From a virus: a DNA stretch of 64,000 nt. The notes beneath the pieces are model-generated. The model was not told the origin of the DNA and searched no databases. It was given only the letters and a program-made list of their open reading frames with translations. The position numbers and the translations under genes are program-made. Where the stretch lies: the IMG/VR virus record IMGVR_UViG_3300037311_000293. One strand, 5' to 3'. Of the stretch, positions 46,967-63,371 are shown one piece after another (position 1 is the stretch's first letter; the number at the start of each line of letters is the position of its first letter).

Positions 46967-48367
46967 ATGCAGTTCATCAAACGCCTACCGGGTGTGGGAT
47001 ACCTCGACAACTGGCTCTGGTTGCCGAAGACCCACGTGAGCCAAACGCAGATCGAGTCGGCCTTCACCTTTGAAGGCCCCAAGATCGTAGAGGCATGGCA
47101 TGCCGAGGAGCACCATTTCAGGGTGCCCAGGAACTACCTGGCACAAGAGACGCTTGAGAAGATGCCGTTCCAAGTATTCGATCTGCGATCTCGGCGGTTC
47201 CCTCGAGTACATCTGAAGAGCTCGGTCGTACTCGACTACAAGGAGCCGCACAAGGATTACCAGAGACGGGGCAGTGCTGCACTACTTGAGACGTTCGATG
47301 GGATTCTGTGCTTGCGCTGCGGGGCGGGCAAAACCGTCGTAGGTCTACATTCTGCGGCACAGCTCAACGTTCCTGTGATCATAACAGTCACAGACGAAGG
47401 CCTTGCAGAGCAGTGGGTGGAGGAGATCGTCGCCCATCTTGGGGTGCCTGAGTCCGACATCGGCATGATCGGTGGCAAGAGAGCAAAGGGAAAGATGAAC
47501 TGGGAGCACGCCATCGCGGTGGCCCACGTTCAAACACTCGCCCGGCGACAAGAAGAGGGCCTGCTGCCGCCAGAGATGCTGAACCACTTCGGTCTTCTGA
47601 TCTGCGACGAGGCTCACGTCATGGGTGCTCCGTACTTCAACACGGCGATACCGCCTTTCCGCGGCCGGAGGTGGGGGCTCTCCGCCACTCCAGTGCGTGA
47701 AGACGGATACGATCCTCTTCTTCGCTACACCCTCGGGCCTGTTGTCTACACCTACTTGACGCCTGACCTGATCCCGAAGGTGTACTTCCGCCAACTACCT
47801 ACCCGACTGGATCTCGACAACCCGAAGGTTGTAGCTGAAACGCACGACGCCACCGGCCAGTTCCACTACGGCATGACCTACGGATATCTGTCACGCGAAC
47901 GTAAAGATCGTACCGAGCGTATCGTGAAGGACATCCAAGACGGCCTAGACAGTGGACGCCAGATCCTCGTACTCACGCACAGCAAAGACATGACCGACGT
48001 CCTCGGTTCGTATTTCCCCGGAGCCGGAGTGGTGAACGGTGAGGTGAAAGGACAGGAGCGCAGACGGCGTATCAGAGAGTGCAACCCAGTCATCGCCATC
48101 ATGCAGCTCGGCAAGCAAGCGCTGAACAAGCCGAGTCTCGATACGCTCTACGTCCTCGAGCCCTTCTCCAAGGCCGGCATGCTCCAGCAAACCATGGGCC
48201 GCGTGCTCCGTCTGTTCGCCGGCAAGAAGAACCCACTCGTCATCTTCTTCGAAGACATCGGCATCCGACCGATGTCACGGCTCTGCGGCAAGCTACGGAT
48301 GAAGCTCAATCGATGGCCCGCAGCAAAGGGCGGGCAGATCCCACACACCACGGTAAAACCATCATGA
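46967..48367 (+). CDS. Superfamily 2 (DExH) helicase
   Basis: CGAGKT, ICDEAH, GLSATP, QTMGRVLR. Confidence 0.9.
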   Translation: MQFIKRLPGVGYLDNWLWLPKTHVSQTQIESAFTFEGPKIVEAWHAEEHHFRVPRNYLAQETLEKMPFQVFDLRSRRFPRVHLKSSVVLDYKEPHKDYQRRGSAALLETFDGILCLRCGAGKTVVGLHSAAQLNVPVIITVTDEGLAEQWVEEIVAHLGVPESDIGMIGGKRAKGKMNWEHAIAVAHVQTLARRQEEGLLPPEMLNHFGLLICDEAHVMGAPYFNTAIPPFRGRRWGLSATPVREDGYDPLLRYTLGPVVYTYLTPDLIPKVYFRQLPTRLDLDNPKVVAETHDATGQFHYGMTYGYLSRERKDRTERIVKDIQDGLDSGRQILVLTHSKDMTDVLGSYFPGAGVVNGEVKGQERRRRIRECNPVIAIMQLGKQALNKPSLDTLYVLEPFSKAGMLQQTMGRVLRLFAGKKNPLVIFFEDIGIRPMSRLCGKLRMKLNRWPAAKGGQIPHTTVKPS

Positions 48368-48792
48368 TCAAGATCGAAACACACCGAACGTTCTATACCC
48401 TCGACCAAGGAGCACCGGCGGAAGAACGCAGGATCTGGGAAGAACAACTCGCTCTGGTGCATTGCGGGACCAAAGAACCGCTCGTCGGCATCCTCGAGTA
48501 CTCCGAGACCGACGAATACGACTGGGCCCTCTACGGTGCCCTGACCTACCTCATCCATGTCGAGTTCGCCGTCGACCCCAACAACAACGCCCTTCGTCTT
48601 CACGTACCGCTTCGAACGCTGATCCCCTTTGGCGTCATGTCCCCGGCAAACATCAAGTTCCCAACACCCCCTACGGCGGTCATGTGGATCAAGGACCAGC
48701 CCGAGACCGTGAAGAAGTGGTTCTGCGACACCTACCTCGCAGTGTTCGATCCCCCGCGCATCATCACATCCGCCGTTCTTCCGCCCCGCTGA
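48364..48792 (+). CDS. Hypothetical protein
   Basis: ATG 48364 overlapping the helicase end; 142 aa. Confidence 0.6.
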   Translation: MIKIETHRTFYTLDQGAPAEERRIWEEQLALVHCGTKEPLVGILEYSETDEYDWALYGALTYLIHVEFAVDPNNNALRLHVPLRTLIPFGVMSPANIKFPTPPTAVMWIKDQPETVKKWFCDTYLAVFDPPRIITSAVLPPR

Positions 48793-48795
48793 ATC

Positions 48796-49476
48796 ATGGA
48801 CGCCGTACAACGACTCCGCGTACTCCGAGACAACTGGCGGGAGTGCAAGAAGTGCGAGCTCTCCAAGTTGCGCGGAGACAACCGCGTCGTGTTCGGCTCC
48901 GGTAACGCCGGGGCCGACATTCTTCTTGTCCTGCCGCCACCGACACAAGCCGATGTTCAGGAGAACATGGGCCTCAGCGACGCGGCCGGTCAGTTGATCG
49001 AAGACATGCTGATGGAGGCGGGCCTCGATCCCGTCAAGGATGTGTTCCGCACAAACGTCGTCGGCTGCCGGCCCTACGTCGTGCTTCCGGCAACTGAAGA
49101 ACAAGAAGAGCGCATCCAAGACCGAAAGGTCGTCAAGGCAGAAGTATCCGCCTGTTCCCCTAGGGTCGAAGAGATCATTTACCTCGTCGACCCCAAACTC
49201 ATCCTCGCCTTCGGTGAGGAAGCATGGGAAGCCCTCGTCATCCCAAAGGTCCGCGCCCCAGAAACCACGATCACAGCCGCCGCGGGGAAGCTGTACTACA
49301 CCTACGTTCCTGGCCGCTTCCGTCCGATCCGGTACCCGGTCATGGCACTCGAGGCTCCGCTGAAACTGGTGGCCAACCCGAGCGCGGCAGCGCACGGGCC
49401 GATCGCCACGACGCTGAAGTACATCATGCAGGCAAAGAAGTACGTCGATCTGATCAACAAGGACGAAGCAAGATGA
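48796..49476 (+). CDS. Uracil-DNA glycosylase family 4-like protein, degenerate active site
   Basis: CKKCELS, VVFGSGNAGADIL, FRTNVVGCRP, distal C (Fe-S ligands); GEAPG and HP motifs absent. Confidence 0.75.
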   Translation: MDAVQRLRVLRDNWRECKKCELSKLRGDNRVVFGSGNAGADILLVLPPPTQADVQENMGLSDAAGQLIEDMLMEAGLDPVKDVFRTNVVGCRPYVVLPATEEQEERIQDRKVVKAEVSACSPRVEEIIYLVDPKLILAFGEEAWEALVIPKVRAPETTITAAAGKLYYTYVPGRFRPIRYPVMALEAPLKLVANPSAAAHGPIATTLKYIMQAKKYVDLINKDEAR

Positions 49477-49883
49477 GCAAGCAAGTTCCTGTCGCCGTGA
49501 CCGCTGCGGTGTCGAAGTTCGAGACCGCCCGTGAGGCGCTCAACGGATTCCGCACCCAGCATGCGAAGATCCTCGAGACCTTCGAGAACCTCAAGGAGCA
49601 GTACAACCAGTCGCTGAACGAAGTGAAGGCGCTGTACAAGGAACACCACGAGGTCATCGGCGGAAAGCTCGGTGACTTCTCGGCGCGAAGCCGCGTGATG
49701 GTCGACGCAGAGCTCTTGCTGAAGCTCATGGGGCCCACGGTGGATCCGATCATCACCATCAAGTACGGTGTCGAACGGAAGTACTACGACGAGGCCGTCA
49801 GCCGAGGGATCATCCCGTCGGAGGTCGTTCGCCAAGTCGAGAAGCGAACCGAGCCCTCGATCTACGGACCCAAGGAACAGTGA
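49473..49883 (+). CDS. Coiled-coil protein (Gam/gp157-like?)
   Basis: ATG 49473 in an ATGA overlap; 136 aa. Confidence 0.6.
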   Translation: MSKQVPVAVTAAVSKFETAREALNGFRTQHAKILETFENLKEQYNQSLNEVKALYKEHHEVIGGKLGDFSARSRVMVDAELLLKLMGPTVDPIITIKYGVERKYYDEAVSRGIIPSEVVRQVEKRTEPSIYGPKEQ

Positions 49884-50260
49884 AGCCGAACATCGAGATC
49901 AAGATCCTCGCGGACTTCAAAGACAGAGACGGGGCGCCCTTGCTGGACAGTGAGGGCGCTTCTGTTTCCTACAAAAGGAGCGTTGTGCGTACCAAAGACG
50001 AGATCAAGATGCTCATTGGAGACGCGAATGCTCGCGTGTCCGTGAGCTTGTCGGAGACGGTGCCCGGACCTTACGGGTACAGCAACCTCAAGGTGTCGGT
50101 GACTGTCACACTGAACTGCGATCAGAACCAGAAGACGATCGAACAGGCAGAGAACGCGGCTCTCCAGGAGTGCATCGCATTTCTCGATACCAGCGTCGAC
50201 ACCGGCTACGCGTTGTTGACCTCTCACCTGAAGCGCCACCTGGGAGACCCCAATGGCTAA
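49880..50260 (+). CDS. Hypothetical protein
   Basis: 126 aa, GTGA overlap. Confidence 0.65.
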   Translation: MKPNIEIKILADFKDRDGAPLLDSEGASVSYKRSVVRTKDEIKMLIGDANARVSVSLSETVPGPYGYSNLKVSVTVTLNCDQNQKTIEQAENAALQECIAFLDTSVDTGYALLTSHLKRHLGDPNG

Positions 50261-50582
50261 CTCTGGCTTCAAGGGCCGCGTCCTCCAGTTGAGCAACCTG
50301 CTCATCCAAGGAGGAAGCACCGGCCCTTCGGTGTCCTTCAACGTCTTGTTCATGGATGGCGACGGCGTCGTCCACGCCCAGACCAAACACGTCGTGTCGC
50401 TGACGGACGATCCACAGATCAAGCAAGCATCCAAGGCTCTGCTCGATGCCTGCCTTGCGCACGCCGAGCGTCTTCACTTCGACGCGCCCAACGACCCCCT
50501 GAAGATGGAAGAGATCCGTCGTGGAATCGCAGAGACCTTTGTTCAAGACGATGCCGATAGCGACCCTGGCGAGCAGGGTTGA
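50253..50582 (+). CDS. Hypothetical protein
   Basis: 109 aa, RBS GGAG. Confidence 0.65.
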   Translation: MANSGFKGRVLQLSNLLIQGGSTGPSVSFNVLFMDGDGVVHAQTKHVVSLTDDPQIKQASKALLDACLAHAERLHFDAPNDPLKMEEIRRGIAETFVQDDADSDPGEQG

Positions 50583-51558
50583 CGCTTTTGCAGAGAGATG
50601 CCTGCCTGATCATGTGGTGGATGATGCGAACCCCGTGTCGTTCGCTGACATCGACGCAAAGAACTACTACGACGGCCTCGCGCGAAAGTTTGCCGTAGGG
50701 ATTCGTTGCCACGGCAGCGATGCTCCTCATGTGTTCACGAAGTGGAGCCGCTCTCAGCTCCTGGCGCATTTGGGTACACGCGAAAAGTGGTTCGATCACG
50801 TCAGCATCGACACACAAGCCGACGAGCTCAACACACGTCGGTCATCGCTGAACGGCTTCATGGTGCGAACCATGAAGTCTTTCGACCACGACGATCTACG
50901 AATCGTACGCGGCATCGTCTCCTCTTCGTACGCCGACATCCCAGACACCGACATCATGCGGGCCCTCCGTGAAGTTCTGCCGAACGGAGACGCGCTGTCG
51001 TACTCGGGGAAGACAGACCGTGCCTTTTACGCCTACGTGCTATCCGAGGACATGATCCGAATCCCAGGAACCAGCTTCGAGGGCTACCCCGGAATGCTGG
51101 TTCGGAACAGCGAAGTTGGTTTCACCTCGCTCTGGGTGATCCCTACGCTCACTGTAGTCGGTTGGTCGTATCCGATTATCCTGCAACGCGACCCGCTTCT
51201 CCGTAAGGTACACCGAGGCAGCTTCGACGAGCTCCGTACGTCGTTCGATGATGCGTTGGGCAAGGCGAGGATCTACTGGAGACCGATGGAGGAGAAGCTG
51301 AACAAGTTGTACTCCATCACCTACGCTACGGAAGACGAAGCGATCAATCAAGTCGTGACGCTTCTGTCGCGTGCTGGTGCGATGAAGGGGATGATTCAGC
51401 AGTGCTGCACGGCGTATCGTAACGCGCGGCATTCGTTCCACACCGCGTATTGCATCTTTGCCGCGGTGCTCGAGGTGGCATCCTCGCATGCCAACCAAGA
51501 CGCCTCCTACATCGGCGCTACCGTTGCTGGCGCCGTGCTCTACGGACTCATTGGGTAG
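50551..51558 (+). CDS. DUF932-like protein
   Basis: RIVRGIVSSSYADIPDTDIM and GMLVRNSEVG motifs; start uncertain. Confidence 0.6.
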   Translation: MPIATLASRVDAFAERCLPDHVVDDANPVSFADIDAKNYYDGLARKFAVGIRCHGSDAPHVFTKWSRSQLLAHLGTREKWFDHVSIDTQADELNTRRSSLNGFMVRTMKSFDHDDLRIVRGIVSSSYADIPDTDIMRALREVLPNGDALSYSGKTDRAFYAYVLSEDMIRIPGTSFEGYPGMLVRNSEVGFTSLWVIPTLTVVGWSYPIILQRDPLLRKVHRGSFDELRTSFDDALGKARIYWRPMEEKLNKLYSITYATEDEAINQVVTLLSRAGAMKGMIQQCCTAYRNARHSFHTAYCIFAAVLEVASSHANQDASYIGATVAGAVLYGLIG

Positions 51559-51635
51559 TGGTGGTCATCGGCGGCCCCCACTACCCCTAGTGGTAGCCGC
51601 CACGCCCCGTTGCGCCTACCAGGCGCGTGGGCGTA
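51553..51635. other. Tandem/alternative hairpins upstream of the helicase gene
   Basis: GGGTAGTGG/CCACTACCC; CCACTA-CCCC-TAGTGG inside GCGGC/GCCGC; ACGCCC...GCGCCT-ACC-AGGCGC...GGGCGT. Confidence 0.5.
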
Positions 51636-51656
51636 CAACAATCGACCCGAGGTACG

Positions 51657-53168
51657 ATGATCAACGTTGAACTTAGGCTCCTGACGAAGATGCTACACAG
51701 CGGGAACTTCGCCCCGATACAACAAGGGGAGATCACGAAGGAGCACTTCGTAACCGAGCAAGGATCGATCCTTTTCAACTTCATCACCAACTACCGAAGC
51801 GATAGCGACGGGCGTGCTCGCTTCCCTTCACTATCGATCGTCCGTTCTAGATTCGAGGGTCGATCGGCCATCGAGCTCCCTGACCCCGATCCCGGAGACA
51901 CTCTTGAGGCGCTGGTCTACGAGACCAATGTGCAGCGCATAAAAGCGCGCATGTCGACCATCGCAAAGCAGCTCGAGGAGTCAGCGCTGAATGCGTCGAA
52001 TCCAGCAGACGCGCTCTCAGCATCGATCGGCACGCTTCGAACGCTCAACGAGGGTCTTCACCGTGCCAGACACCTCAGTCTGTCACACGCGATCCAAGAC
52101 ATCGTTGCGGACTACGACATCGGCAACATCCTGCCCCTCGGTATCCCTTGGCGTTGGCCTTCCTATCAAGAGGTCACGCGAGGGATGCACAAGAAAGAGT
52201 TCTACGTGATCGCGGGGAGGCCGAAGTCTCGAAAGACGTTCGTAACCCTCGCTGCCGTAGTTCACGCCTTCATGATGTTCGGTAGCCGCATACTAGTGTT
52301 CTCGCCAGAGATGCCGGCGAAACAGATCATGCTTCGTTCGATCGCCATGATGGCGCATCTACGCTACATGGAGTTCAAACGAAGCGATCTAGATCAGGCC
52401 GAAACCATGCGCCTCATCGAGGCCGCACGGACCTACGGTCGTCTCGACGTCAACGAGAAAGACGATCAATACTACCAGCGCTTCCGTCAATATCGTTCGG
52501 ACATGGACCCCGAGGCCCAGCCTACCTTCGACGTCATCGAAAGCACCGGCAAGTCTATCGGGTGGATGGAAGCACAGATCGAAGCGTTTGCGCCTGACAT
52601 CGTCATGGCAGACTCGTTCTACCGCCAGCACTACGACGGCAAGAAGAACGACTCGGATTGGAAGGCGGTGACGTCGACCAGTCGAGGTATCAAGGATCTG
52701 GCCATGTCGACGAACACGTGCGTCATCGGTACACACCAGATGAACCGCGGTGCCGACAAGGACGTCGGTACGCTGAGCAATCTGTCGCTGGCCGATGCGA
52801 TTGGTCAGGACGCCGACATGATCGTGCGCGTCATCACGGGCGTTCTCGAAGGCGCCCAGGTCTCGGCCTTGGTGAACCTTGGCGGGCGCGAGGTACCGTT
52901 CGACGGTGTGCTGATCAACAACGTTCCGTGTTCGGATTTCAGCGAGATCGCCCCCATCACGAACAAGAAAACTCTGGAAACACTCATGGCAAAGGAAGGG
53001 GAAGCCGACGCCGAAGAGGAGAAGAGATCGATGAAGAAGAAGGCCCTTCGACGCCACACCGCTGATCACGCATCCTCGAAGGAGCTCCAAGAACGGACGC
53101 AGTTTGAGAGCATCCTCGACGCAGACGTCGAAGACGAACGTGAGCTCATCGAGGGCGAAGAGGAATGA
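51657..53168 (+). CDS. dnaB: DnaB-like replicative helicase
   Basis: Start ATG 51657; IAGRPKSRKT, FSPEM, IVMADSF, HQMNR, ADAIGQDAD. Confidence 0.85.
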   Translation: MINVELRLLTKMLHSGNFAPIQQGEITKEHFVTEQGSILFNFITNYRSDSDGRARFPSLSIVRSRFEGRSAIELPDPDPGDTLEALVYETNVQRIKARMSTIAKQLEESALNASNPADALSASIGTLRTLNEGLHRARHLSLSHAIQDIVADYDIGNILPLGIPWRWPSYQEVTRGMHKKEFYVIAGRPKSRKTFVTLAAVVHAFMMFGSRILVFSPEMPAKQIMLRSIAMMAHLRYMEFKRSDLDQAETMRLIEAARTYGRLDVNEKDDQYYQRFRQYRSDMDPEAQPTFDVIESTGKSIGWMEAQIEAFAPDIVMADSFYRQHYDGKKNDSDWKAVTSTSRGIKDLAMSTNTCVIGTHQMNRGADKDVGTLSNLSLADAIGQDADMIVRVITGVLEGAQVSALVNLGGREVPFDGVLINNVPCSDFSEIAPITNKKTLETLMAKEGEADAEEEKRSMKKKALRRHTADHASSKELQERTQFESILDADVEDERELIEGEEE

Positions 53169-54184
53169 ACGACATCGCGACGGCGCTGTTCAACTTGGAG
53201 CCAAGACTTCGTGAGCGCGCCAAGTTCGGAACAGACTACGTCCTGATCCAATGCCCGTTCCACGGCGACGGCCAGGAGAAGACACCGTCGTGCTCCGTAA
53301 GCCTTGAGAAGCCTGTGTTCCACTGCCACGCCTGTCAGACCTCTGGCCACGTGAGCCGGCTGTTCCGCTCTCTAGGCATGGATCCGCAATCCGTAGACGT
53401 CGTGCTGCGCATGACGGGGATGGATGCACGGAAGCAAGAAACCGCGATCTACGGAAAAGGCAAGCTCGCGGTACGAATGGTCAACGGGGGCTACAACCCC
53501 TACCGCGGAAAGTTCATCCTCGATGAAGATCTTCTGGACGCCTACCGCCACGCCCCCAAGGCGCTGCTACAGGCCGGGTTCAAGAAGAAGACACTCCACC
53601 ACTTCGAGGTGGGGTACGACTTCCAGAATCTTAGGATCACATTCCCCTTGCGCAACGTGTACGGCGACCTCGTCGGTATCTCTGGGCGAGCCGCCTACGA
53701 CGGCGATGAGCCGCGTTACAAGATCTACGACCAAGAGCTCCGTTTTCGTGAAGGATTCTCGGTACCTGAGAACTACACGATGGAGTCGGTCAAGGACGCC
53801 ATCTTGTGGCACGGGCACATTGTCAGACCCTTCCTGTACAAGGACGACAGTGAAGCCCTGGTCGTCACCGAGGGGTTCAAGGCTTGCATGTGGACCTGGC
53901 AAGCCGGCTATGAGAACACGGTAGCCCTTGTTGGCGCGTATCTGTCAGATCTACACGCCGAGATGATCGCCACCGTAGTGAAGTACGTAGTGCTGTTCTT
54001 GGACAACAACGAAGCCGGAATCCGCGGCACCTACCACGCTGGCTGGAGACTTGCCCAGCGCGGTGTACATGTACTCGTGGTCCCCTACCCCGATGAGCGC
54101 GAACAGCCCGACGCTCTGACACCCGAAGAAATCAAACTCGCTTTTCGATCCTTGAAGCCTTTTCACGTCTGGAGAACATCATGA
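53165..54184 (+). CDS. dnaG: DnaG-like DNA primase
   Basis: CPFH...CHAC zinc finger; ITFPL; TOPRIM VTEG and FLDNNEAG. Confidence 0.9.
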   Translation: MNDIATALFNLEPRLRERAKFGTDYVLIQCPFHGDGQEKTPSCSVSLEKPVFHCHACQTSGHVSRLFRSLGMDPQSVDVVLRMTGMDARKQETAIYGKGKLAVRMVNGGYNPYRGKFILDEDLLDAYRHAPKALLQAGFKKKTLHHFEVGYDFQNLRITFPLRNVYGDLVGISGRAAYDGDEPRYKIYDQELRFREGFSVPENYTMESVKDAILWHGHIVRPFLYKDDSEALVVTEGFKACMWTWQAGYENTVALVGAYLSDLHAEMIATVVKYVVLFLDNNEAGIRGTYHAGWRLAQRGVHVLVVPYPDEREQPDALTPEEIKLAFRSLKPFHVWRTS

Positions 54185-55410
54185 ACAAAGATCTAATGCG
54201 CCACCGCCAGACCCCCTCGTTCGCCGCCCAGGGTGCCGCCCGGAATCTCGGCCCCAGCGCGCGTGCCGGCGGCGGTCCTGGGGGAGGAAGCAAGATCGTG
54301 GAGGGCCGCTACGAGGCCTTCTACCCCCGAGATACCCCGATCTGGCTCCGCATCAGCCCGGCGTCGTCATACACCTACGAGGTCTACGACCGCGTCGAGA
54401 AGGAAGTCGTCGAAGTCACGACGACGTGGCTCGAGTACCGGAAGCACTACATCCCGGGCAACAAGAACCGGACGGGCCAGAACGGAAAGCGTCTGCAACA
54501 GGACTTCTTCTGCTCCTGCGGTCCTCGCCGCGAACAGCCGTGCTGGGGATGCGCGATTCGCACTGCGCACTACGAGAAGCTCGACGCCATCGAGGCCCGT
54601 ACCGGTATCCGACCGGACGACGAGCCGCCGGTGAGCGCTTCTACGCAGTTCGCTCTCGCCATCACGGTGGCGGAGTGGATCTACAACATCCCGGTTCGAG
54701 ACTCCAATGGTTCGATCCGGAAGACCCGTGGTGGTGAGCTGATCTACCGCCACATCCCCGCACCCTTCGCCGAGGAGAACTCGGAGGTCTCCGAGCTCGA
54801 AGGCTTCGACCGGACGTTCGGGCACCGCATGCACTGGTCCATGGGCAGCCAGCACCTCGGGCAGCTTCTTGCCGTCGACGAGCGCCTGCGCTCGCACTGC
54901 GGCAACTGCGCCGGGGAAATGGTGGCCGACACCATGGTCTGCCCGTCGTGCGAGACCTCCCACAAGCTGCCTGGTGCAGTGAAGGGCATCGACCTCGACA
55001 AGGCCCGGCAGAAGAAGCGGAAGTGCTCGGCTTGCGGAGAGACCAACACGTTCGTTCCGCTCTACCAGTGCCCGGACTGCGGAGACCCCAAGGAGGGCAG
55101 CCTGCTGTCCTTCGATCTTCGCGTGATGAAGGAAAACATCGGAGACAACAAGTCGATCATCCACGTCGTCGACATCCGGATGCCGGGCTCTCCGGACCCC
55201 AACATCCAGACCCGTCTGGACGAGATGAACAACAACCCCCTGAAGCTGGACGCCATCTTCGCCCCGACGGACCTGAAGTACCAGAAGTCGGCGCTGGGCG
55301 ACCGGCTCACCAAGGGACTCAGTCCCGTACTCGAACGCAAGGACGAGTCGGAGACCACGGAATCCTACTCCGAGGATGACGAGGACTCCGAAGACAAGAT
55401 CGCGTTCTGA
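54181..55410 (+). CDS. Putative single-stranded DNA-binding protein with zinc ribbons
   Basis: 409 aa between primase and polymerase; gp32-like FFCSC..CWGC; acidic tail ending EDKIAF. Confidence 0.55.
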   Translation: MNKDLMRHRQTPSFAAQGAARNLGPSARAGGGPGGGSKIVEGRYEAFYPRDTPIWLRISPASSYTYEVYDRVEKEVVEVTTTWLEYRKHYIPGNKNRTGQNGKRLQQDFFCSCGPRREQPCWGCAIRTAHYEKLDAIEARTGIRPDDEPPVSASTQFALAITVAEWIYNIPVRDSNGSIRKTRGGELIYRHIPAPFAEENSEVSELEGFDRTFGHRMHWSMGSQHLGQLLAVDERLRSHCGNCAGEMVADTMVCPSCETSHKLPGAVKGIDLDKARQKKRKCSACGETNTFVPLYQCPDCGDPKEGSLLSFDLRVMKENIGDNKSIIHVVDIRMPGSPDPNIQTRLDEMNNNPLKLDAIFAPTDLKYQKSALGDRLTKGLSPVLERKDESETTESYSEDDEDSEDKIAF

Positions 55411-55412
55411 TC

Positions 55413-57422
55413 ATGCCGCGTCTCCGTTTGCTCCCGCCCGTAGAATCGGCGGAAACACCGGAGGAGGCCGCCCCGATCTTCAACTACTTGATGAATCGGG
55501 GCGGCCACATCGCGATCGACACCGAGACGACTGGTATCCAGAAGCTCGAGTCTCGCGTTTTGTTTTGGTCTATGGCCACTGAAGATCGCCGGTTCTTCCT
55601 GACCGACAATCTTCTCGGGTACTTCCGCCCTCTTCTTGAGCGCAAAGACGTCACCTGGCGGCTGGCAAACGCCAAGTTCGATCGTCACATGCTCGCGAAC
55701 ATGGGCTACGAGTTCCAGGGCCCAACCTGGGACATCATCGACATGGACGCCATGATCGATGACACGCGGCCCCACGGTCTCAAAGACCAGGCTTGGTTGT
55801 CGTACCAGGCGAAGTGGGGCGAGTTCAAGGAGCTGTTCCTCGATCCCTGGACGGTCGCAGAGGAGCTGGGTTTCGACAAATCGTTCTACGCCCAGTTCAA
55901 GCAACTCGATGTTGGGCAAAAGCTGCTCGAGGTCTACAACCAGCGGCCAGACATCGTAGAGGACTACGCGAGCTGTGACGCCTTCTTCACGTACATGCGT
56001 GCCGAAGACCTAGCCACACAACTCGCGGCCACTACGCTGCCCACGGAAGTCGTGCCGGGCTTCAAGACGCTCTCCGACTACTACGAGACCATCGAAGTAC
56101 CGCTGACGCGCTCGCTCTGGCGCATGGAGCGCGCCGGCTTCGCTGTCGACCGCGATTGGGTGAAGCAGATCGACATTCCGATGCGGGACGGCATCGCGGC
56201 TCTGAACAAGGAACTCCGACAGATCATCGGATACGAGTTCAATCCGAAGTCGTCTGCGGACATCGCGTCGATCCTCTACGACAAGAGCCAGTTCGCCATG
56301 AAGCCGCTGAAGTACACCAGCGGTGGTGGCGGCGAACCAAAGCCCTCAACCGACGAAGCAACCCTCAAGACCCTCAAGCTACGATGCAGCGACATCCAGT
56401 CGCCGCAGTTCAAGTTCCTTGATGCGCTGCTGCGCTTCAAGAAGCTGACGAAGCTGCACGGCACCTACGTCAAGAACATCGACAAGGTGATCGCCAGCGA
56501 CGGACGCGTCCACTGCCGCCTGAACCAGAGCGGTGCCAGGACATCTCGTCTGTCGTCGTCAGACCCCAACATGCAGAACATCCCGATCCGAAATGATCCC
56601 TACAAGATTCGCGGCTGCTTTGTCGCAGATCCAGGAACACTTCTGATCGACTACGACTATCCCCAGATCGAGTTCCGAATCGCCGCCGCTCTTGCTGGTG
56701 AGAAGGACATGATCGAGGCCATCAAGCGTGGCTGGGATATCCACACCGCGAATGCGGCCAACATGTACAAGAGCGATTCGCGCGTTACCTACGACGCGAT
56801 CATGGAGGCTCGGCGTAAGAAAGACGCCAAGGAGCCGATGAGCGACATCGACAAGTACCTGCTGTCTCGCCGTGATGGAGCCAAGACCGTTGGTCTTGGA
56901 ACTCTGTACGGCGAGGGTACGGCGAAGATGGCTCAAGAGCTCAAGATCTCGAGACAAGAGGCCGAAGAGCTCCGAGATGCGTTCTTCACCACGTACCCGT
57001 CGATCGCCAATCAGATCGACTACATGCATGGGTACGCCCATACGTACGAGCACACTCACACGATGCTCGGGCGTATGCGGCGTCTGCACCGGATCAACAA
57101 CCTGTACAACAGCGGTCTGGTAGCCGCCGAAGAACGCCAGGCGTACAACTCCTTGATCCAGGGATCTGGTGCCGAGATGATGAAGCTCGCGCTTCTTCGT
57201 ATCGACAACAACCCCGACTTCATCGCACTTGGTGGCCGGCTGGTCCTGACGGTGCACGACGAGCTCATCGCGCGTGCTCCCAAGGACACTGCGCACGAGG
57301 TCGCCGGGATCATGAAGGAGATGATGTCCGACCCCTACAACTGGGGGCCGATTCGCCTGAACTACCCCGTACCTGTAGACCCCGATGGCTCCATTGGTGA
57401 GCGCTGGAGTGACGTGAAATGA
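55413..57422 (+). CDS. polA: Family A DNA polymerase with 3'-5' exonuclease
   Basis: DTET, NAKFD, YASCD (exonuclease); RLSSSDPNMQNIP, DYPQIEFR, KTVGLGTLYG, IQGSGA, VHDEL. Confidence 0.95.
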   Translation: MPRLRLLPPVESAETPEEAAPIFNYLMNRGGHIAIDTETTGIQKLESRVLFWSMATEDRRFFLTDNLLGYFRPLLERKDVTWRLANAKFDRHMLANMGYEFQGPTWDIIDMDAMIDDTRPHGLKDQAWLSYQAKWGEFKELFLDPWTVAEELGFDKSFYAQFKQLDVGQKLLEVYNQRPDIVEDYASCDAFFTYMRAEDLATQLAATTLPTEVVPGFKTLSDYYETIEVPLTRSLWRMERAGFAVDRDWVKQIDIPMRDGIAALNKELRQIIGYEFNPKSSADIASILYDKSQFAMKPLKYTSGGGGEPKPSTDEATLKTLKLRCSDIQSPQFKFLDALLRFKKLTKLHGTYVKNIDKVIASDGRVHCRLNQSGARTSRLSSSDPNMQNIPIRNDPYKIRGCFVADPGTLLIDYDYPQIEFRIAAALAGEKDMIEAIKRGWDIHTANAANMYKSDSRVTYDAIMEARRKKDAKEPMSDIDKYLLSRRDGAKTVGLGTLYGEGTAKMAQELKISRQEAEELRDAFFTTYPSIANQIDYMHGYAHTYEHTHTMLGRMRRLHRINNLYNSGLVAAEERQAYNSLIQGSGAEMMKLALLRIDNNPDFIALGGRLVLTVHDELIARAPKDTAHEVAGIMKEMMSDPYNWGPIRLNYPVPVDPDGSIGERWSDVK

Positions 57423-57850
57423 TGAACGTGAGTGTGATCCATCCTGTGCTACCGTGGTACGGGATCTTCTTCATCTCTTCGAAGAAACCCGCCCCTGGGG
57501 TGGCCTACTCGATGTTGTCTGCAACAGAGAACACCGAGAACCACTACATCGACGTGGTGTCACGGCCGCTTCTGTGCTGGACGCTCGCCTACGGCGGGGC
57601 ACCGGAAGCTCTGTACTACTGGAGCAAGCGCTCGCGCCCAGCAACTGCCCTTGAGATCTGCGCGTACCTCGGCGATGCCGAGGACATCCAACACCATCTC
57701 GGGGACTTGGAACACGGAGATGTGCAGCTCGGTGCCCAGCGTCTTGCTGTCTCCGAGAAGCTGGAAGTGTTGATCAAGCTCCATCAACAGGAGGCTGCGG
57801 TTTACCTGTCGAAGGACGCACGCGACGTGCTGACCCTGCTGGAGGATTGA
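57419..57850 (+). CDS. Hypothetical protein
   Basis: 143 aa in operon, overlap with the polA stop. Confidence 0.6.
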   Translation: MMNVSVIHPVLPWYGIFFISSKKPAPGVAYSMLSATENTENHYIDVVSRPLLCWTLAYGGAPEALYYWSKRSRPATALEICAYLGDAEDIQHHLGDLEHGDVQLGAQRLAVSEKLEVLIKLHQQEAAVYLSKDARDVLTLLED

Positions 57851-57852
57851 AC

Positions 57853-59124
57853 ATGGCGAGCAAGAAGACGGCGAAGAAGAAGGCACCTGCCAGCAAGAGC
57901 CAAACCACGAGGGCGGCAAGGGCCAGAGCAGAAGCCACGACCAAGAACAAAGCCCAACCCAAGGCTGACATCGACGATGTGATCGCAGCAGTCAACAAGG
58001 AGATGAAGGGCTCCGTGGTGCGTCGTGCGTCCGACATGGACACATTGTACCTGCTGCGGCGACCCACCGGGATTCCCACGCTCGACATCGCCATGGGTGG
58101 TGGCTTTCCGGCGTCTGCGACCTCAGTGCTCGTCGGGCCCGACGGCGCCGGCAAGGACTACTTGTTGTGGAGAACCTGTGCCGAGACCCAAAAGATCTAC
58201 GGTGACGAGTTCTGCATGGTGGCCTTCCTGACTGAGTTTCGCGCCGACAAGCCGTTCATGCGCAACATGTGCGGGTTGAAGGTCGCGTTCTCCGACGCCG
58301 AGATCGAGTCCTACAACGAGGCCCGTGAGAAGTCCGGCGTCGAGCCCCTCACCGAAGAGGAGATCGAGGAGCTCAAGACCGAGGTCGGCAAGATCTACAT
58401 CATCGACGGCGTGACGGCCGAACAAGGCTTCGACGCGTTGATCCGCATCATCGCATCGAACACCTGTCAGATTGCTGTGATCAACAGCATCGGTTTCCTG
58501 CAAACCGAAGCAAAGGAAGCGACGGAGAGCTTCACCGAGTTCCCGCAACAGCGGAACGAGGCGATGCTGCTGTCGAAGTTCATGCCGAAGCTGGCGATGA
58601 CCCTCAACAACGACGACAACGGCAGGAACGAAACCTCGCTGCTGATCGTCAACCAAGTCCGCTCCAAGGACAACGCCCAAGCCGTACGCGGACGTCCGAC
58701 CCAGGAACGCGACAAGTACGAGGCCGGCTCGAAGTCCTACGCCCTGAAGCACGGCAAGGCCATCGAGGTCTTCGTTCACAAGGGACCGAAGTACCGGGAC
58801 GCCGTGGACAACACGGTCATCGGACGCAAGACGCCGTGGGAGCTCACCAAGGGCAAACTCGGCACCCACGACGGCAAGGCAGGGTCGTTCGACTTCTTCT
58901 ACGACGGTGGCGCCGACATCCTTGGCGACCTTCACGCGGCGTGCTTGCTGTACGACGTCTTCGAGACCGCAGGTGCTTGGGTGACCTACGACGACGAAGA
59001 GTTCGGCTTCAAGGCACAGGGCAAGGAAGGTGTGCGTCGTCAGCTCATGGACAACCCAGAGCTCGTCGCCCACCTCAAAGAGCGTGTGCTCCAGGCTGCC
59101 AACGTGGTGTGTAGGTACCGCTGA
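57853..59124 (+). CDS. recA: RecA-like recombinase with variant Walker motifs
   Basis: PTGIPTLDIAMGGGFP, GPDGAGKD, FLTE, AVINSI, LLIVNQVR, ALKH; RBS GGAGG. Confidence 0.85.
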   Translation: MASKKTAKKKAPASKSQTTRAARARAEATTKNKAQPKADIDDVIAAVNKEMKGSVVRRASDMDTLYLLRRPTGIPTLDIAMGGGFPASATSVLVGPDGAGKDYLLWRTCAETQKIYGDEFCMVAFLTEFRADKPFMRNMCGLKVAFSDAEIESYNEAREKSGVEPLTEEEIEELKTEVGKIYIIDGVTAEQGFDALIRIIASNTCQIAVINSIGFLQTEAKEATESFTEFPQQRNEAMLLSKFMPKLAMTLNNDDNGRNETSLLIVNQVRSKDNAQAVRGRPTQERDKYEAGSKSYALKHGKAIEVFVHKGPKYRDAVDNTVIGRKTPWELTKGKLGTHDGKAGSFDFFYDGGADILGDLHAACLLYDVFETAGAWVTYDDEEFGFKAQGKEGVRRQLMDNPELVAHLKERVLQAANVVCRYR

Positions 59125-59125
59125 C

Positions 59126-59680
59126 GTGGCTACGCAGAAGCAGCGCAAGCGGCGGTCTGCTCGAGTGGAGAGGGCGGTGGCTGCCGATCTTGGTGGCCAC
59201 CGCACCTTCAACTCCGGTGCCGGCGATGAAAAGGGCGACGCCGTCGTCCCTCACCGCGTCACCCAAACCGGGGGCTCACTGAGAGAAGTCACCAAGCTCG
59301 CTCTCAGGATCGAAAGCAAGACAACCGAGGCAGCGTCGTACACGTTTCACGTGCTCGACTGGATCAAGCTCGTAGACGCCGCTCTTGCGAACGGCGAGCT
59401 ACCCGTCTTCCACATCCAAGTGCTTACGCGGAGCACTCCTGTGGACTTCGTAGTGATCCAGAGTTCGTTCTTTCGCGAGCTCTTTCCAGGGCACGTGCCT
59501 CCGCTTTCTCGTGCGCGTGTGCGGTCTGTAAAGATCGATTACGAAAAGATGAAGGAGTGGGATGACCTCGAACCCGCCATGGCTTTCGAGTTCGACCTAT
59601 CACCCTCACGAGGCTACGTCACAGCGGTGTCTTACGATGCCTTCCTGACGAAACTGAAGCACTACGAGACAACGCTATGA
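59126..59680 (+). CDS. PD-(D/E)xK nuclease, Hjc-like Holliday junction resolvase
   Basis: GTG 59126; ERAVA...NSGA..KGD...IESKTT. Confidence 0.65.
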   Translation: MATQKQRKRRSARVERAVAADLGGHRTFNSGAGDEKGDAVVPHRVTQTGGSLREVTKLALRIESKTTEAASYTFHVLDWIKLVDAALANGELPVFHIQVLTRSTPVDFVVIQSSFFRELFPGHVPPLSRARVRSVKIDYEKMKEWDDLEPAMAFEFDLSPSRGYVTAVSYDAFLTKLKHYETTL

Positions 59681-60489
59681 AGACAGCGGTAACACTGGCG
59701 GATGCCGTCGGGCTCACCAAGGACGACATCTTCGATCTCGAAGGCGCTTACGTCGGTATGTTGAAGACGACGGTGCGCGACCAAGATCGTCAGGGCTACT
59801 TTCATCCAAGTAGCGTTGGGAGCTGCGGACGAAAGAACGTCTACGAGTACATCCGTGCGCCTGCCATCCAAACCATCGAGCCCGAAAGTCTAGAGATCTT
59901 CGATCTCGGGCATGCGATCCATGAGCTCGTCGGGAACAAGTTGCTGAAGACAGGTACGTACCTGAAGGAAAGCAACGTCGGATACAACCTCCGCCTGGAG
60001 GTACCCTTTGATCCCGCCACAGATCAGTTGTTCGTCGACTTTGGTGTCGGCGGCACGACGGATGGTGTACTCGACATCTGGGCAGCCACCTGGCGTCAAC
60101 GGGCTGTAGTGGAGACGAAGTCGATCGGCCTCAAGTACTTCGAGACACTGACTGGGCCCAAAGAAGATCATCTCGAGCAAGCACACATCTACGCGTATCG
60201 ATTCGACGCACCGATCATCTACGTCTGGTACTACTGCAAGAACGACTCTCGACGTAAGGTGTATCGGGTGCCCTACGATCACTCGATCTTGATGCGGGCG
60301 CTCAAGAAGTTCGAAACCTGGCTCGAGCACGTCAGAAACAACACCCTGCCCGATCGCAGCGAGGACTGGTTCGCTTGTCCGCGCTGCGAGTACCGCCTGG
60401 TGTGCCAACCTTCGATCATTCGAAACCAGTCGTCGCGGACCCACGGCAAGAAGCTGAACGTGATCCGTAAGAACGGCCAGATGAGGTAG
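59677..60489 (+). CDS. Cas4/AddB-like PD-(D/E)xK exonuclease with Fe-S cysteines
   Basis: HPSSVGSC, GHAIH, GTTDG, VETKS, QAHIY, CPRCEYRLVC. Confidence 0.8.
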   Translation: MKTAVTLADAVGLTKDDIFDLEGAYVGMLKTTVRDQDRQGYFHPSSVGSCGRKNVYEYIRAPAIQTIEPESLEIFDLGHAIHELVGNKLLKTGTYLKESNVGYNLRLEVPFDPATDQLFVDFGVGGTTDGVLDIWAATWRQRAVVETKSIGLKYFETLTGPKEDHLEQAHIYAYRFDAPIIYVWYYCKNDSRRKVYRVPYDHSILMRALKKFETWLEHVRNNTLPDRSEDWFACPRCEYRLVCQPSIIRNQSSRTHGKKLNVIRKNGQMR

Positions 60490-60491
60490 CC

Positions 60492-61103
60492 GTGAGCGGT
60501 CTGAAACTGAAAGACAAAGCAATCGTGCCCCAGACCAAGGGGCAGGAGAGTCTCGTGGGCTTCACTGCCCAAGAGATCATGGACGAAGTGTCGGCGCGCA
60601 CCCACGAGCTCGGGCTGCCGGCGTACCCGCGCCCCACAAACACACCGGTGCCCCTCACCGATGTTGACGTCGAGACCTTGACCAATCACCAGCTCGGGGC
60701 GTTGTACACGCAGTACACCGCCTTTGCGCAGTTCGTGAACGGACAGCTCGCAGAGGCAGAGGCGGGTTACAAGATCGCGTCGTCTCGGTTGAAGATGCTG
60801 GACGCCCGACTACGCGCCGAGCTGTTCGCGCAGAACGTACCGAAGACCGAGGTGCCCGTGCGCGTCAAAGAGAACGGCGCGCTTCAGGATGCCGAGTTCG
60901 AGCTGGTCAAGTTGTTCGCGATGAAGACCATCCTCGAGGCCCACTACAAGGCATACGACAAACAGGCCTCGGCGCTGTCGCGCATCATCACCCTCCGCGA
61001 GCTCGAGTTCGAGAAGGAGATGCGGGACAACGGGATCCACGGCCGAAAGCCCCGGGCCCGAACGGCTCAGCGTCCTGGGAGGGACTTCGCGCGTGAGGAC
61101 TAG
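60492..61103 (+). CDS. Coiled-coil protein (UvsY-like recombination mediator candidate)
   Basis: 203 aa, long heptad helices; context only. Confidence 0.4.
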   Translation: MSGLKLKDKAIVPQTKGQESLVGFTAQEIMDEVSARTHELGLPAYPRPTNTPVPLTDVDVETLTNHQLGALYTQYTAFAQFVNGQLAEAEAGYKIASSRLKMLDARLRAELFAQNVPKTEVPVRVKENGALQDAEFELVKLFAMKTILEAHYKAYDKQASALSRIITLRELEFEKEMRDNGIHGRKPRARTAQRPGRDFARED

Positions 61104-61572
61104 TGAACGCTACGCCTTGCTCAAGCTCGAGGTCGAGTTACGTGAGAAGCCGATCAGCATCAACGCGGCGTACAGCACTTCGCGAGGACGCCGCTTCCTG
61201 ACCTCAGAGGGAAAGGCTTTCACGGCACGCCTTTCCTCTGTGATCGCGAAAGCTACGTTGACGGCTAACGCGTCATGGAAAGATGTCGTCGACACTGTCT
61301 ATAAGAATGGGGGAGGCATTCATCTGATGATCGACTTGTACCTCGACGACCTGCACAACCCGCATTGGGTCGTCGGCGGCAACAAAACGGCGTCAGGTGC
61401 GCCTCGTCCTCCGTACAAAGTCTTCGACGGCTCGAACTACATCAAGCTGATCGAGGATGCCGTCGTCAAGGGGACTGGTATCGACGATAGCTGCCATTTG
61501 TTCACAGGAATCGAAAAGCATCACGATCCGGATGACCCGCGCATCGGGATCGTGTATACGGTGCTCGAATGA
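61093..61572 (+). CDS. rusA: RusA-like Holliday junction resolvase
   Basis: PISIN...RRFLTSEGKAF; FDGSNYIKLIEDAV..GIDDS. Confidence 0.75.
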   Translation: MRTSERYALLKLEVELREKPISINAAYSTSRGRRFLTSEGKAFTARLSSVIAKATLTANASWKDVVDTVYKNGGGIHLMIDLYLDDLHNPHWVVGGNKTASGAPRPPYKVFDGSNYIKLIEDAVVKGTGIDDSCHLFTGIEKHHDPDDPRIGIVYTVLE

Positions 61573-61805
61573 GTAAAACCACTGAACTCGTAGCTCTAGC
61601 CAAGGACAAGTGCGAGGATCCTCGATTCGCCGTGTGCTATGCGCGAGGATCAGTGTTCAAGGCTGAGGGACACTTCCATCGTGTGGAGAAAGGCAAGCGC
61701 AGCCTCGTGAGTCGCGCGCTCTGTCTTTCCGAGCACTACGGAAAGCGTTGCCAGATCTGTCCCAATCGGGACTTTACTGTAACGTTGGTCGCACATGGGA
61801 CTTGA
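61569..61805 (+). CDS. Small Cys-rich protein
   Basis: 78 aa with five Cys (C..HYG..CQIC); ATGA overlap. Confidence 0.6.
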   Translation: MSKTTELVALAKDKCEDPRFAVCYARGSVFKAEGHFHRVEKGKRSLVSRALCLSEHYGKRCQICPNRDFTVTLVAHGT

Positions 61806-62121
61806 CGATCTCAACCTGAGCGAGCTAGTCCTGCTGGCCCAGGAAACGAACGACAAGGCTCATCGCGGCCTCGGGCGAGACGCGCTCATCAAGCTCGCTC
61901 TCGGAGAAGACTTCGTGATCCATGAACGGCAGGTGGACAAGACACGCCTGACCATCATGGAGTTTGTCGAGACCCACTGGGATCAGGTGAGGCCTCTGCT
62001 CTCCTGCCCAGCGAAAACCCGAGACTCACGAGCGTGCTTCCAGTGCACGGACATCCAGGTGCTGGAGTGCGCTACGTCGAACGACATCATCTTCGTCTGG
62101 AAACGCAACAAGGATCGATAG
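61795..62121 (+). CDS. HeH/Rho-N-like domain protein with Cys cluster
   Basis: LDDLNLSELVLLAQE...LGRDALIKL; C-terminal C-x9-C-x2-C-x7-C. Confidence 0.6.
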   Translation: MGLDDLNLSELVLLAQETNDKAHRGLGRDALIKLALGEDFVIHERQVDKTRLTIMEFVETHWDQVRPLLSCPAKTRDSRACFQCTDIQVLECATSNDIIFVWKRNKDR

Positions 62122-62129
62122 GAGATACA

Positions 62130-62585
62130 ATGGCACTTCCGAACGAGTTCGCCGAGTACGAGAGCTTCAGCAAGGAACAGTGGATGGAGGTCGCGTCAAG
62201 CACGGACCCCATCCGCCGCAAGGTCGTCGCGAACTGTCTCCGTGAGCTCGGCGTGGCTCCCGCGGACTACATGGGCTGGGACGCCGCGACCCGCGTCGAC
62301 TTCATCATGAGCAAGGCGGAGCCCAAGAAGGCCGACACCGGCTCGGGCAAGACCTCGGGCAAGGGCAAGGCGGCGGCGACTCCGTCGGCTTCGGCGGCGC
62401 CGGCTGCGGCCGTCGGCGGCATCGACCCCGCGGTCATCGCCGAGCTCCAGGAGAAGGTCGAGTACAACTCGAAGCTCCTCACGAAGGTCCACGACCTTCT
62501 CGTCGTTCTCATCTACTCGAACCCCGCGGCGAAGGCGAACGCCGAGGAGCTCGACGTCGACGTGAACCTCCTGGGAAACGGCTGA
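62130..62585 (+). CDS. Highly expressed two-domain protein (151 aa)
   Basis: ATG 62130 with AGGAG; extreme GC3; K/A/G/S/T linker; C-terminal coiled coil; ends CTG GGA AAC GGC TGA. Confidence 0.8.
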   Translation: MALPNEFAEYESFSKEQWMEVASSTDPIRRKVVANCLRELGVAPADYMGWDAATRVDFIMSKAEPKKADTGSGKTSGKGKAAATPSASAAPAAAVGGIDPAVIAELQEKVEYNSKLLTKVHDLLVVLIYSNPAAKANAEELDVDVNLLGNG

Positions 62586-62797
62586 GCTCCCCTGTAGGCC
62601 CGGCGACTCGGCTTCTCGGGGTTGAGTCGCTGCCTCGCGGCTCGGTCGTGGAATACTCGGCAGCACATCTCAGACAGATGTCGCTGTCCGAGCTCCTCGG
62701 TCTGGCAGCGAGCCTTGGGCTGGATATGTCTGGTCTCGAGGACAAGCGATCAGCGGTGTACACCAAGCTGATCCAAACGGCCTACAGCGTGGAGTGA
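62573..62797 (+). CDS. -1 frame extension reached by predicted programmed frameshift (HeH-like domain)
   Basis: In-frame slippery G GGA AAC at 62573-79; 74 open codons to TGA 62795-97; encodes HLRQMSLSELLGLAASLGLDMSGLEDKRSAVYTKLI; no RBS for an internal start. Confidence 0.6.
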   Translation, partial: GKRLSSPVGPATRLLGVESLPRGSVVEYSAAHLRQMSLSELLGLAASLGLDMSGLEDKRSAVYTKLIQTAYSVE

Positions 62798-62800
62798 GAG

Positions 62801-62827
62801 AAGGGGCCCTCTGGCCCCTTTTCTTTT
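62801..62827 (+). terminator. Intrinsic terminator ending the replication operon
   Basis: AAGGGGCC-CTCT-GGCCCCTT followed by TTCTTTT. Confidence 0.85.
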
Positions 62828-62846: not shown

Positions 62847-63371
62847 ATGAAACGCATCATCTACCGCATCCTGTCGTGTCTCAGCCTGATCCTGGGATAC
62901 GGCTTCCTCTTCCTCGCCACAGCACTGCTGTTCGCCCACAAGGTGAAGCTCCGGTCCGCGACCGCGCAATGGCGGCCGTGGTTTGCTGCCCGGCTCAAGT
63001 ACAGCACGACCATCGGCTCAGCCGTGATCTTCAACCCCAACCACCTCGGGGACGAGCAAGAACTCAGAATCCGAGCTCACGAGAAGGTACACGTCCGCCA
63101 GTTCGAGGATGACGCCGTCTTCTTCGTTCTGCTCGCTGCCTGGGAAGTCGTCGCCGTGCTGTCCCCGCTCTGGGTGCGCGTCGTCTTCACCGTGCCAGTC
63201 CTCTGGCTCATGCTTTACATCGCGAAGTGGCTCAACGCCTGGCTCCGAGGCGGCCACGTCTACCGCGACGCCGAACACGAACGCAGCGCCTACGCCCAGA
63301 CCGACACCCACCACACCGCCAGCGGAAAGAGCTGGCTCGACGACCACCTATCCCGGCCGCGGGACTGGTAA
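62847..63371 (+). CDS. Membrane-anchored zincin-like metallopeptidase (HExxH)
   Basis: N-terminal TM, RAHEKVHVRQ, second TM region, HERSAY. Confidence 0.65.
   Translation: MKRIIYRILSCLSLILGYGFLFLATALLFAHKVKLRSATAQWRPWFAARLKYSTTIGSAVIFNPNHLGDEQELRIRAHEKVHVRQFEDDAVFFVLLAAWEVVAVLSPLWVRVVFTVPVLWLMLYIAKWLNAWLRGGHVYRDAEHERSAYAQTDTHHTASGKSWLDDHLSRPRDW

Follow-up and report, generated by a model that had tools for sequence, protein, structure and literature searches.

Gene A encodes a 151-aa protein (P0001) and occupies positions 62130..62585 on the plus strand of a 64,000-nt stretch of DNA, here called the window, which belongs to a complete 177-kb IMG/VR virus record representing an uncultured phage of 60% GC. 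Its ATG start codon at 62130 is preceded by a Shine-Dalgarno (SD) sequence, AGGAG, located 5 nt upstream (62120..62124, +), and its 3′ end reads CTG GGA AAC GGC TGA, with the TGA stop at 62583-85. The genes on the same strand 5′ of gene A encode two helicases, a primase, a DNA polymerase and a UvsX-like recombinase, together with a Holliday-junction resolvase, a Cas4-like exonuclease and RusA. Gene A is the final gene of this replication/recombination block, and on its 3′ side lie a terminator and then a membrane protein gene. Because gene A comes last in a DNA-replication block, following the genes from helicase to RusA, its setting is not that of a tail chaperone, in agreement with an earlier note on this DNA that had placed a hidden -1 frameshift here outside the tail-chaperone context.

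At the DNA level, gene A was compared among four independent viral loci (the window, L002, L005 and L008), all from one syntenic phage clade, in which gene A identity is 31-59%. L003 and L004 are identical to L002, and L009 differs from L008 at 7 bases that lie outside the site of interest. A scan of metagenome contigs for further DNA loci returned no additional locus, scans of genome contigs returned one false positive only (a coiled-coil protein in L011), and scans of viral contigs with P0020 and P0032 as queries returned no further loci. No match was found among the GenBank phages of INPHARED by tblastn with P0001, P0029 and P0032, and thus no cultured phage with gene A was found.

Several features of the neighborhood are worth recording. 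Many genes of the replication block (46967-62121, +) have no recognizable SD and overlap or abut their neighbors, a combination which suggests that they rely heavily on translational coupling; gene A, by contrast, has a strong AGGAG. The gene upstream of gene A (61795-62121, +) encodes a 108-aa protein with an N-terminal LNLSEL...-type helix and four Cys. Its product is fused N-terminally to distant gene A homologs in P0016, P0037, P0048, P0067 and P0071-P0073, and these fusions suggest that the two proteins may act together. The gene that follows the terminator (62847-63371, +) encodes a multi-pass membrane protein with a conserved HE(K/H)xHVRQxED motif and a YRDAEHE motif, and is syntenic in relatives (L005 3204-3740; L008 about 2785-3385). 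It looks metalloprotease-like, with only weak Pfam matches.

Neither the gene A protein nor 73 relatives match a Pfam or PHROG family. An AlphaFold2 (AF2) model built from 73 sequences (pLDDT 81.6) predicts, in order, an N-terminal domain of five helices (residues 5-63), a disordered linker rich in K, G, S and A (residues 64-99) and a helical hairpin (residues 100-140). Foldseek searches with this model against the PDB and BFVD gave nothing at E < 0.5, and a search of the ESM Atlas gave no usable match. With VIA-align, the N-terminal domain shows low but thematically consistent likeness to the N-terminal domain of Rho (Z 4.9, 1.9 Å over 46 residues), the C-terminal region of YqbF, and LEM and SAP domains (Z 3.4-4.9 for Rho, LEM and SAP), and the hairpin weakly resembles the coiled-coil oligomerization domain of hepatitis delta antigen (Z 3.8), all of these Z values lying in a range where chance helical matches are frequent. 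The predicted N-terminal domain looks like a member of the helix-extension-helix (HeH) class. The one feature that would point to an oligomer, as the earlier note described the protein, is the predicted hairpin with its weak likeness to a coiled-coil oligomerization domain.

The probable slip site and the -1 frame

The heptamer G GGA AAC lies at 62573..62579 (+), in X_XXY_YYZ slip register over the zero-frame codons CTG GGA AAC and one codon before the stop, exactly as the earlier note had read it. From the first codon after a -1 slip, CGG at 62579, the -1 frame continues for 72 codons to a TGA at 62795-97 (62579..62797, +); counting the two slip codons gives the 74 open codons noted previously. 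The long product would thus comprise 150 + 72 = 222 aa. The two isoforms proposed earlier, of 151 aa and about 221 aa, would stand as a short and a long form, but the length of the latter is corrected to 222 aa. The junction peptide had been given with a K, whereas tandem slippage yields ...LLGN-RLSSPVGPATR, which has none; K would replace N at the junction only if the P-site tRNA slipped alone.

Taken by itself, the GGGAAAC motif is weak evidence. About 17-19 in-frame XXXYYYZ heptamers occur genome-wide in roughly 45,000 codons, and in a second gene of the phage, too, a single codon separates a heptamer from the stop, probably a chance occurrence. Moreover, the -1 frame is often open in GC-rich genes, and that of gene A is also open for 111 codons upstream of the slip site. 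It is the conservation of the site that exceeds chance. NNG GGA AAC GGC stop is kept in 4/4 loci, and GGGAAACGGCT is the sole long invariant nucleotide run around the site in their alignment. The Gly codon at the slip site is GGA in all four loci, although GGA accounts for only 5 of the 46 Gly codons (11%) elsewhere in the four genes, and the remaining invariant Gly columns of gene A are GGC throughout. A rare GGA preceded by a G-ending codon, both in 4/4 loci, is more than the protein sequence requires.

Downstream of the site, the -1 frame is the sole stop-free frame in each of the four loci and has the codon-position composition of coding sequence, with low GC2 and high GC3. The extensions differ in length (72, 79, 69 and 82 codons), and the tail is nevertheless always in the -1 frame, so that all length changes are of whole codons. 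Just past the -1 stop lies an intrinsic-terminator-like hairpin with a U-run (62794..62827, +; -25.9 kcal/mol, z -4.4). Although a consensus terminator scan missed it, a similar hairpin follows the -1 stop in L002, L005 and L008, and the sole Rfam match, a sub-threshold ctRNA, is this same hairpin. The earlier observation that the terminator comes only after the -1 stop is thus upheld.

A trace of the site can also be followed at the protein level. When 1.84 billion cluster representatives were searched with a profile built from six homologs, 74 proteins of 92-318 aa were returned, most of them with 20-35% identity to P0001, for a family of 78 members in all. In 60 of the 78, the C-terminus is x-G-N followed by 0-4 residues (usually one), and two more end similarly in G-K. 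Residue x can have a G-ending codon in 60/60 cases; D, N, H, Y, F, C and I occupy this position in 0/60, against a background of 17-25%. Following x-G-N, 57 of the 60 proteins continue with G, D, E or A, which have G-starting codons. Elsewhere in the family the GN dipeptide occurs 22 times in 13,963 positions, and sub-family alignments have very few invariant columns, the G and the N being two of them. This footprint, read from proteins only, agrees with the mark expected of a gene that closes with a conserved NNG GGA AAY G site.

An indel in the GGG or AAA run, introduced during sequencing or assembly, would turn a single in-frame ORF into the arrangement seen here, and short homopolymer runs are indeed error-prone on some platforms. 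This explanation is rejected and can be given next to no weight. Four assemblies from different samples share an identical site with an in-frame stop one codon on, the x-G-N endings recur across the family, and an in-frame fusion to the tail is absent from 74/74 of the proteins returned by the profile search.

Two further routes past the stop were rejected. Stop-codon readthrough at TGA 62583-85 would lead into a TAG four codons later in the zero frame, and transcriptional slippage would have to take place on only three G and three A in a row. Similar geometries occur at two other places in the phage genome. One lies some 1.6 kb ahead of the window start, at about position 83127 of G000:C1 (minus strand; L012 816-1754, minus), where a 312-aa ORF ends ATG GGA AAG CAG TGA. 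Here G GGA AAG stands in frame with a single codon between it and the stop, and the -1 frame is open for 82 codons. The product of this frame would be a hydrophobic peptide of 81 aa, for which a GTG that overlaps the stop could act as start; the frame is probably an ordinary coupled gene and provides a control for chance occurrence of the geometry. At about 114780 of G000:C1 (plus strand; L013 261-911), a 216-aa ORF carries an in-frame C CCA AAC 7 codons ahead of its stop, and the -1 frame runs on into the next gene, of 316 aa, whose GTG start lies 64 nt upstream of that stop.

Linker, internal starts and the downstream hairpin

Between the slip site and the tail domain, the -1 frame carries a coding signature. 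The linker motif G-V-E-S-L-P (62618..62635, +, -1 frame) lies 5′ of every candidate start and is kept as G-V-E/R-S/P-L-P in the four loci and in those separately called ORFs that reach that far. Its codons vary chiefly at the third position (GGG/GGA/GGT, GTT/GTG/GTC, CTG/CTC/CTT). Differences along the linker at codon positions one, two and three number 9/8/14 between the window and L002 and 3/4/8 between L002 and L008, and in the tail domain itself third positions likewise change most. No ATG, GTG or TTG is present in the -1 frame of the window from 62246 to 62648, and in L005, as in the window, this frame is free of all three from its opening stop to beyond the linker motif. With no start codon upstream, the motif is translatable only by ribosomes coming from gene A.

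These data bear on an alternative in which an ordinary small gene in its own right, initiated at GTG 62648 or ATG 62678, encodes the tail as a protein of about 39-50 aa, and the heptamer is a by-product of a conserved protein end, ...L-G-N-G. Gene callers do give the tail as a separate ORF, both here (P0007, 39 aa) and in a further 19 clusters, and an ATG or GTG is present near alignment columns 28-32 in most relatives. The second heptamer-at-stop in the genome illustrates, as well, how such geometry can arise by chance. However, coding marked by wobble-position changes extends upstream of the candidate starts, through a linker that has no start codon in the window and L005, and neither the fixed -1 frame of the tail nor the rare GGA at the slip site in all four loci is expected of an independent gene. 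The start position is not conserved either: among tail ORFs from 16 further contigs the called N-termini are scattered over alignment columns 15-32, and the conserved Met (62678 in the window) is replaced by L or K in P0099 and P0100. A separate gene is therefore an unlikely explanation of the tail.

Initiation signals were also considered. The 20 nt that precede GTG 62648 and ATG 62678 contain no GGAG-type SD, in line with the earlier note, and none is present within 12 nt of the candidate internal starts in the four loci, which lie at least 45 nt past the gene A stop (63 nt in the window). The missing SD is an argument of only moderate strength against independent initiation, since many genes of this phage have no clear SD. 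A strong hairpin in L002 and L008 buries the tail's first in-frame ATG in its 3′ arm. The hairpin (L002 4466-4500, L008 about 2511-2545) is very stable, with a z of -5.4 for the L002 region; its arms encode I-P-G and P-G-M, and the ATG is paired with CAT. This structure could block internal initiation.

A mixed scheme would combine the frameshift fusion with internal initiation of a free HeH peptide, at any rate in the clade of L002 and L008, where an ATG follows P-P-G. In these two loci a GGAG is found about 13 nt upstream of the ATG, and start-like codons are frequent at alignment columns 28-29. At the corresponding position, however, the window has S-V-V, with a GTG and no SD; in L002 and L008 themselves the hairpin masks the ATG, and nothing requires a free HeH peptide. 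The use of both routes is unlikely, about as much as a purely separate gene.

A hairpin of 10-13 bp is also found 3′ of the heptamer in the window (62603..62630, +). The 10-bp stem reported in the earlier note exists, formed by GCGACTCGGC at 62603-12 and GTTGAGTCGC at 62621-30 (10 pairs including 2 G-U), but a role as a conserved stimulator is not supported. It lies 23 nt from the heptamer, against a usual spacing of 5-9 nt; the equivalent hairpins of L002 and L008 start 45-48 nt away, and a weak 5-bp stem is all that L005 offers. Alifold analysis of the four loci detects almost no covariation (term -0.62). Comparison of the four loci revealed neither a stimulatory structure at a conserved spacing of 5-9 nt nor, in their alignment, a conserved SD-like element upstream. 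Stimulatory elements are missing at some bacterial and phage frameshift sites, so their absence lowers the expected efficiency of slippage without ruling the site out. Given that no conserved stimulatory structure was found, slippage probably occurs at a low basal level, by analogy with lambda G/GT. The hairpin at 62603-30 may instead serve to mask internal starts.

The tail domain

The domain encoded at the end of the -1 frame, extension residues 28-70 (62660..62788, +), resembles the HeH modules of the SAP and Rho_N families. Its AF2 model contains helices at residues 28-33, 36-46 and 57-70 with an extended stretch at 47-56, the pLDDT being about 77-86 over residues 31-70, and the first 16 residues of the extension are predicted to be disordered. 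The HeH architecture, two helices joined by an extended segment over about 40 residues, is present in this model. Foldseek rows for the tail include N-terminal domains of Rho and SAP domains (1a8v, 1pv4, 5jji, 2do1 and 1h1j), with rmsd values of 2-3 Å (6.2 Å for 2do1) over ~45 residues and E > 1, Foldseek statistics being weak for a domain as small as this one.

Sequence comparison points in the same direction. The window tail matches Pfam Rho_N with E 0.1-0.2 and 12-13 bits, below the cut-off of 24.9, and a sequence profile search of the PDB with the tail gave nothing significant. Searching with the alignment of four tails brought up 19 additional small ORFs (51-67 aa), of which 16 were new. 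Among 23 homologous tails, 17 match Rho_N (best 5e-4) and 11 match SAP (best 1.5e-5), mostly below curated thresholds, and one has PF02037 on record. An assignment of the tail as a SAP/Rho_N-like HeH domain is reasonable but not proven. If the matches of the gene A N-terminal domain are real as well, the long form would have an HeH-type domain at both ends. An origin of the tail as a duplicate of that N-terminal domain was considered and is without sequence support: hhalign between the two gives a probability of 0.3%, that is, no sequence likeness.

Proposed mechanism and relation to known frameshift systems

A real programmed -1 frameshift at G GGA AAC is the best reading of these sequences, with a probability of about 0.8. 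The central proposal of the earlier note, a hidden -1 frameshift that adds an HeH/Rho-N-like module, is supported by a heptamer, an open frame, a linker and a tail that are all conserved in the four loci; the heptamer and the -1 ORF persist together in 4/4. Gene A and the small frame downstream would then be one recoded gene. Most ribosomes would stop at TGA 62583-85 and release the 151-aa protein, in which a disordered linker would connect an HeH-like N-terminal domain to a helical hairpin. A smaller share would slip back one base with GGA in the P site and AAC in the A site; the tRNAs would re-pair with GGG and AAA, and reading would go on with CGG CTG.... These ribosomes would produce the 222-aa protein, which carries in addition a flexible linker and a second HeH domain of the SAP/Rho_N type. 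Transcription would end just past the -1 stop.

At the level of function, the helical hairpin may allow the short and long forms to assemble together. Nucleic-acid binding may be a property of the HeH domains, in which case the long form would add a second contact, for bridging or anchoring, and the position of gene A would tie its protein to replication and recombination. A more far-reaching proposal is that the frameshift is obligatory across the family and fixes the proportion of subunits with one and with two HeH domains in a self-associating protein that organizes or bridges DNA. It is prompted by at least 60 diverged representatives with the footprint and none with an in-frame tail, and should be regarded as tentative, with the odds somewhat against it. 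If true, the fixed ratio would be a stoichiometry device like that of lambda G/GT, employed for genome handling and not for tail building, and the gene A family would represent previously undescribed phage HeH proteins of the replication/recombination machinery.

There are practical consequences, too. Gene callers split gene A into a 151-aa protein and an orphan peptide of 39-67 aa in at least 20 clusters, and the C-terminal x-G-N-stop footprint offers a simple route to correcting the annotation of the whole family. As a compact natural G GGA AAC site without an obvious stimulator, gene A could also serve as a model for basal slippage in bacteria.

The frameshift mechanism itself is textbook; the gene family is new for it. 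The conserved programmed frameshifts known in tailed phages belong mostly to tail chaperones, with a few in capsid and tail genes. The PRFect paper (PMC10274946) mentions scattered phage frameshifts outside tail genes, and a literature search found no published frameshift that adds a SAP/Rho_N domain. A conserved frameshift in a family linked to DNA metabolism would mean that this ratio-setting device is used outside virion assembly. The heptamer has precedents: G GGA AAC is the gag-pro site of SRV-1 (PMC2995055) and the g-t site of the haloarchaeal virus HCTV-1 (Atkins et al. 2016, PMC5009743), and G GGA AAG is the G/GT site of lambda (PMC5009743). An A-site AAC is reported to be less shift-prone than AAG in E. 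coli (PMC5009743), which would count against the frameshift in a host that behaves similarly.

Lambda G/GT is a close parallel in design. Both sites are X_XXY_YYZ heptamers with GGA as the P-site codon, and both give a short major and a long minor product with a common N-terminal part, as predicted in the case of gene A. In neither case do relatives have an in-frame fused version, which suggests that the ratio of the two products matters. However, G/GT lies between the tail tube and tape-measure genes, whereas gene A stands at the end of a replication/recombination block. No sequence or fold relation between the two was found with Pfam, PHROG or Foldseek, and the addition in gene A, 72 aa comprising a linker and an HeH domain, is unlike that of G/GT.

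The added domain itself has its counterpart in the HeH modules of the SAP, LEM and Rho N-terminal domains (PF02037, PF07498). The tail is predicted to share with these the order of helix, extended stretch and helix over ~40 residues, and differs in the strength of its Pfam matches, which are sub-threshold in most homologous tails and well below the cut-off in that of the window.

Another group of known cases consists of 3′-terminal frameshifts that extend capsid or tail proteins, as in T3 and T7 (gene 10A/10B), Lactobacillus phage A2 and Listeria phages A118, A500 and PSA (PMC5009743). As in gene A, the shift in these phages occurs within a few codons of the zero-frame stop and adds a short C-terminal extension, so that a small accessory domain is carried by a fraction of the subunits. 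Those proteins are virion components, however, and several of their extensions are Ig-like, whereas gene A lies among DNA-metabolism genes and its extension is SAP/Rho_N-like.
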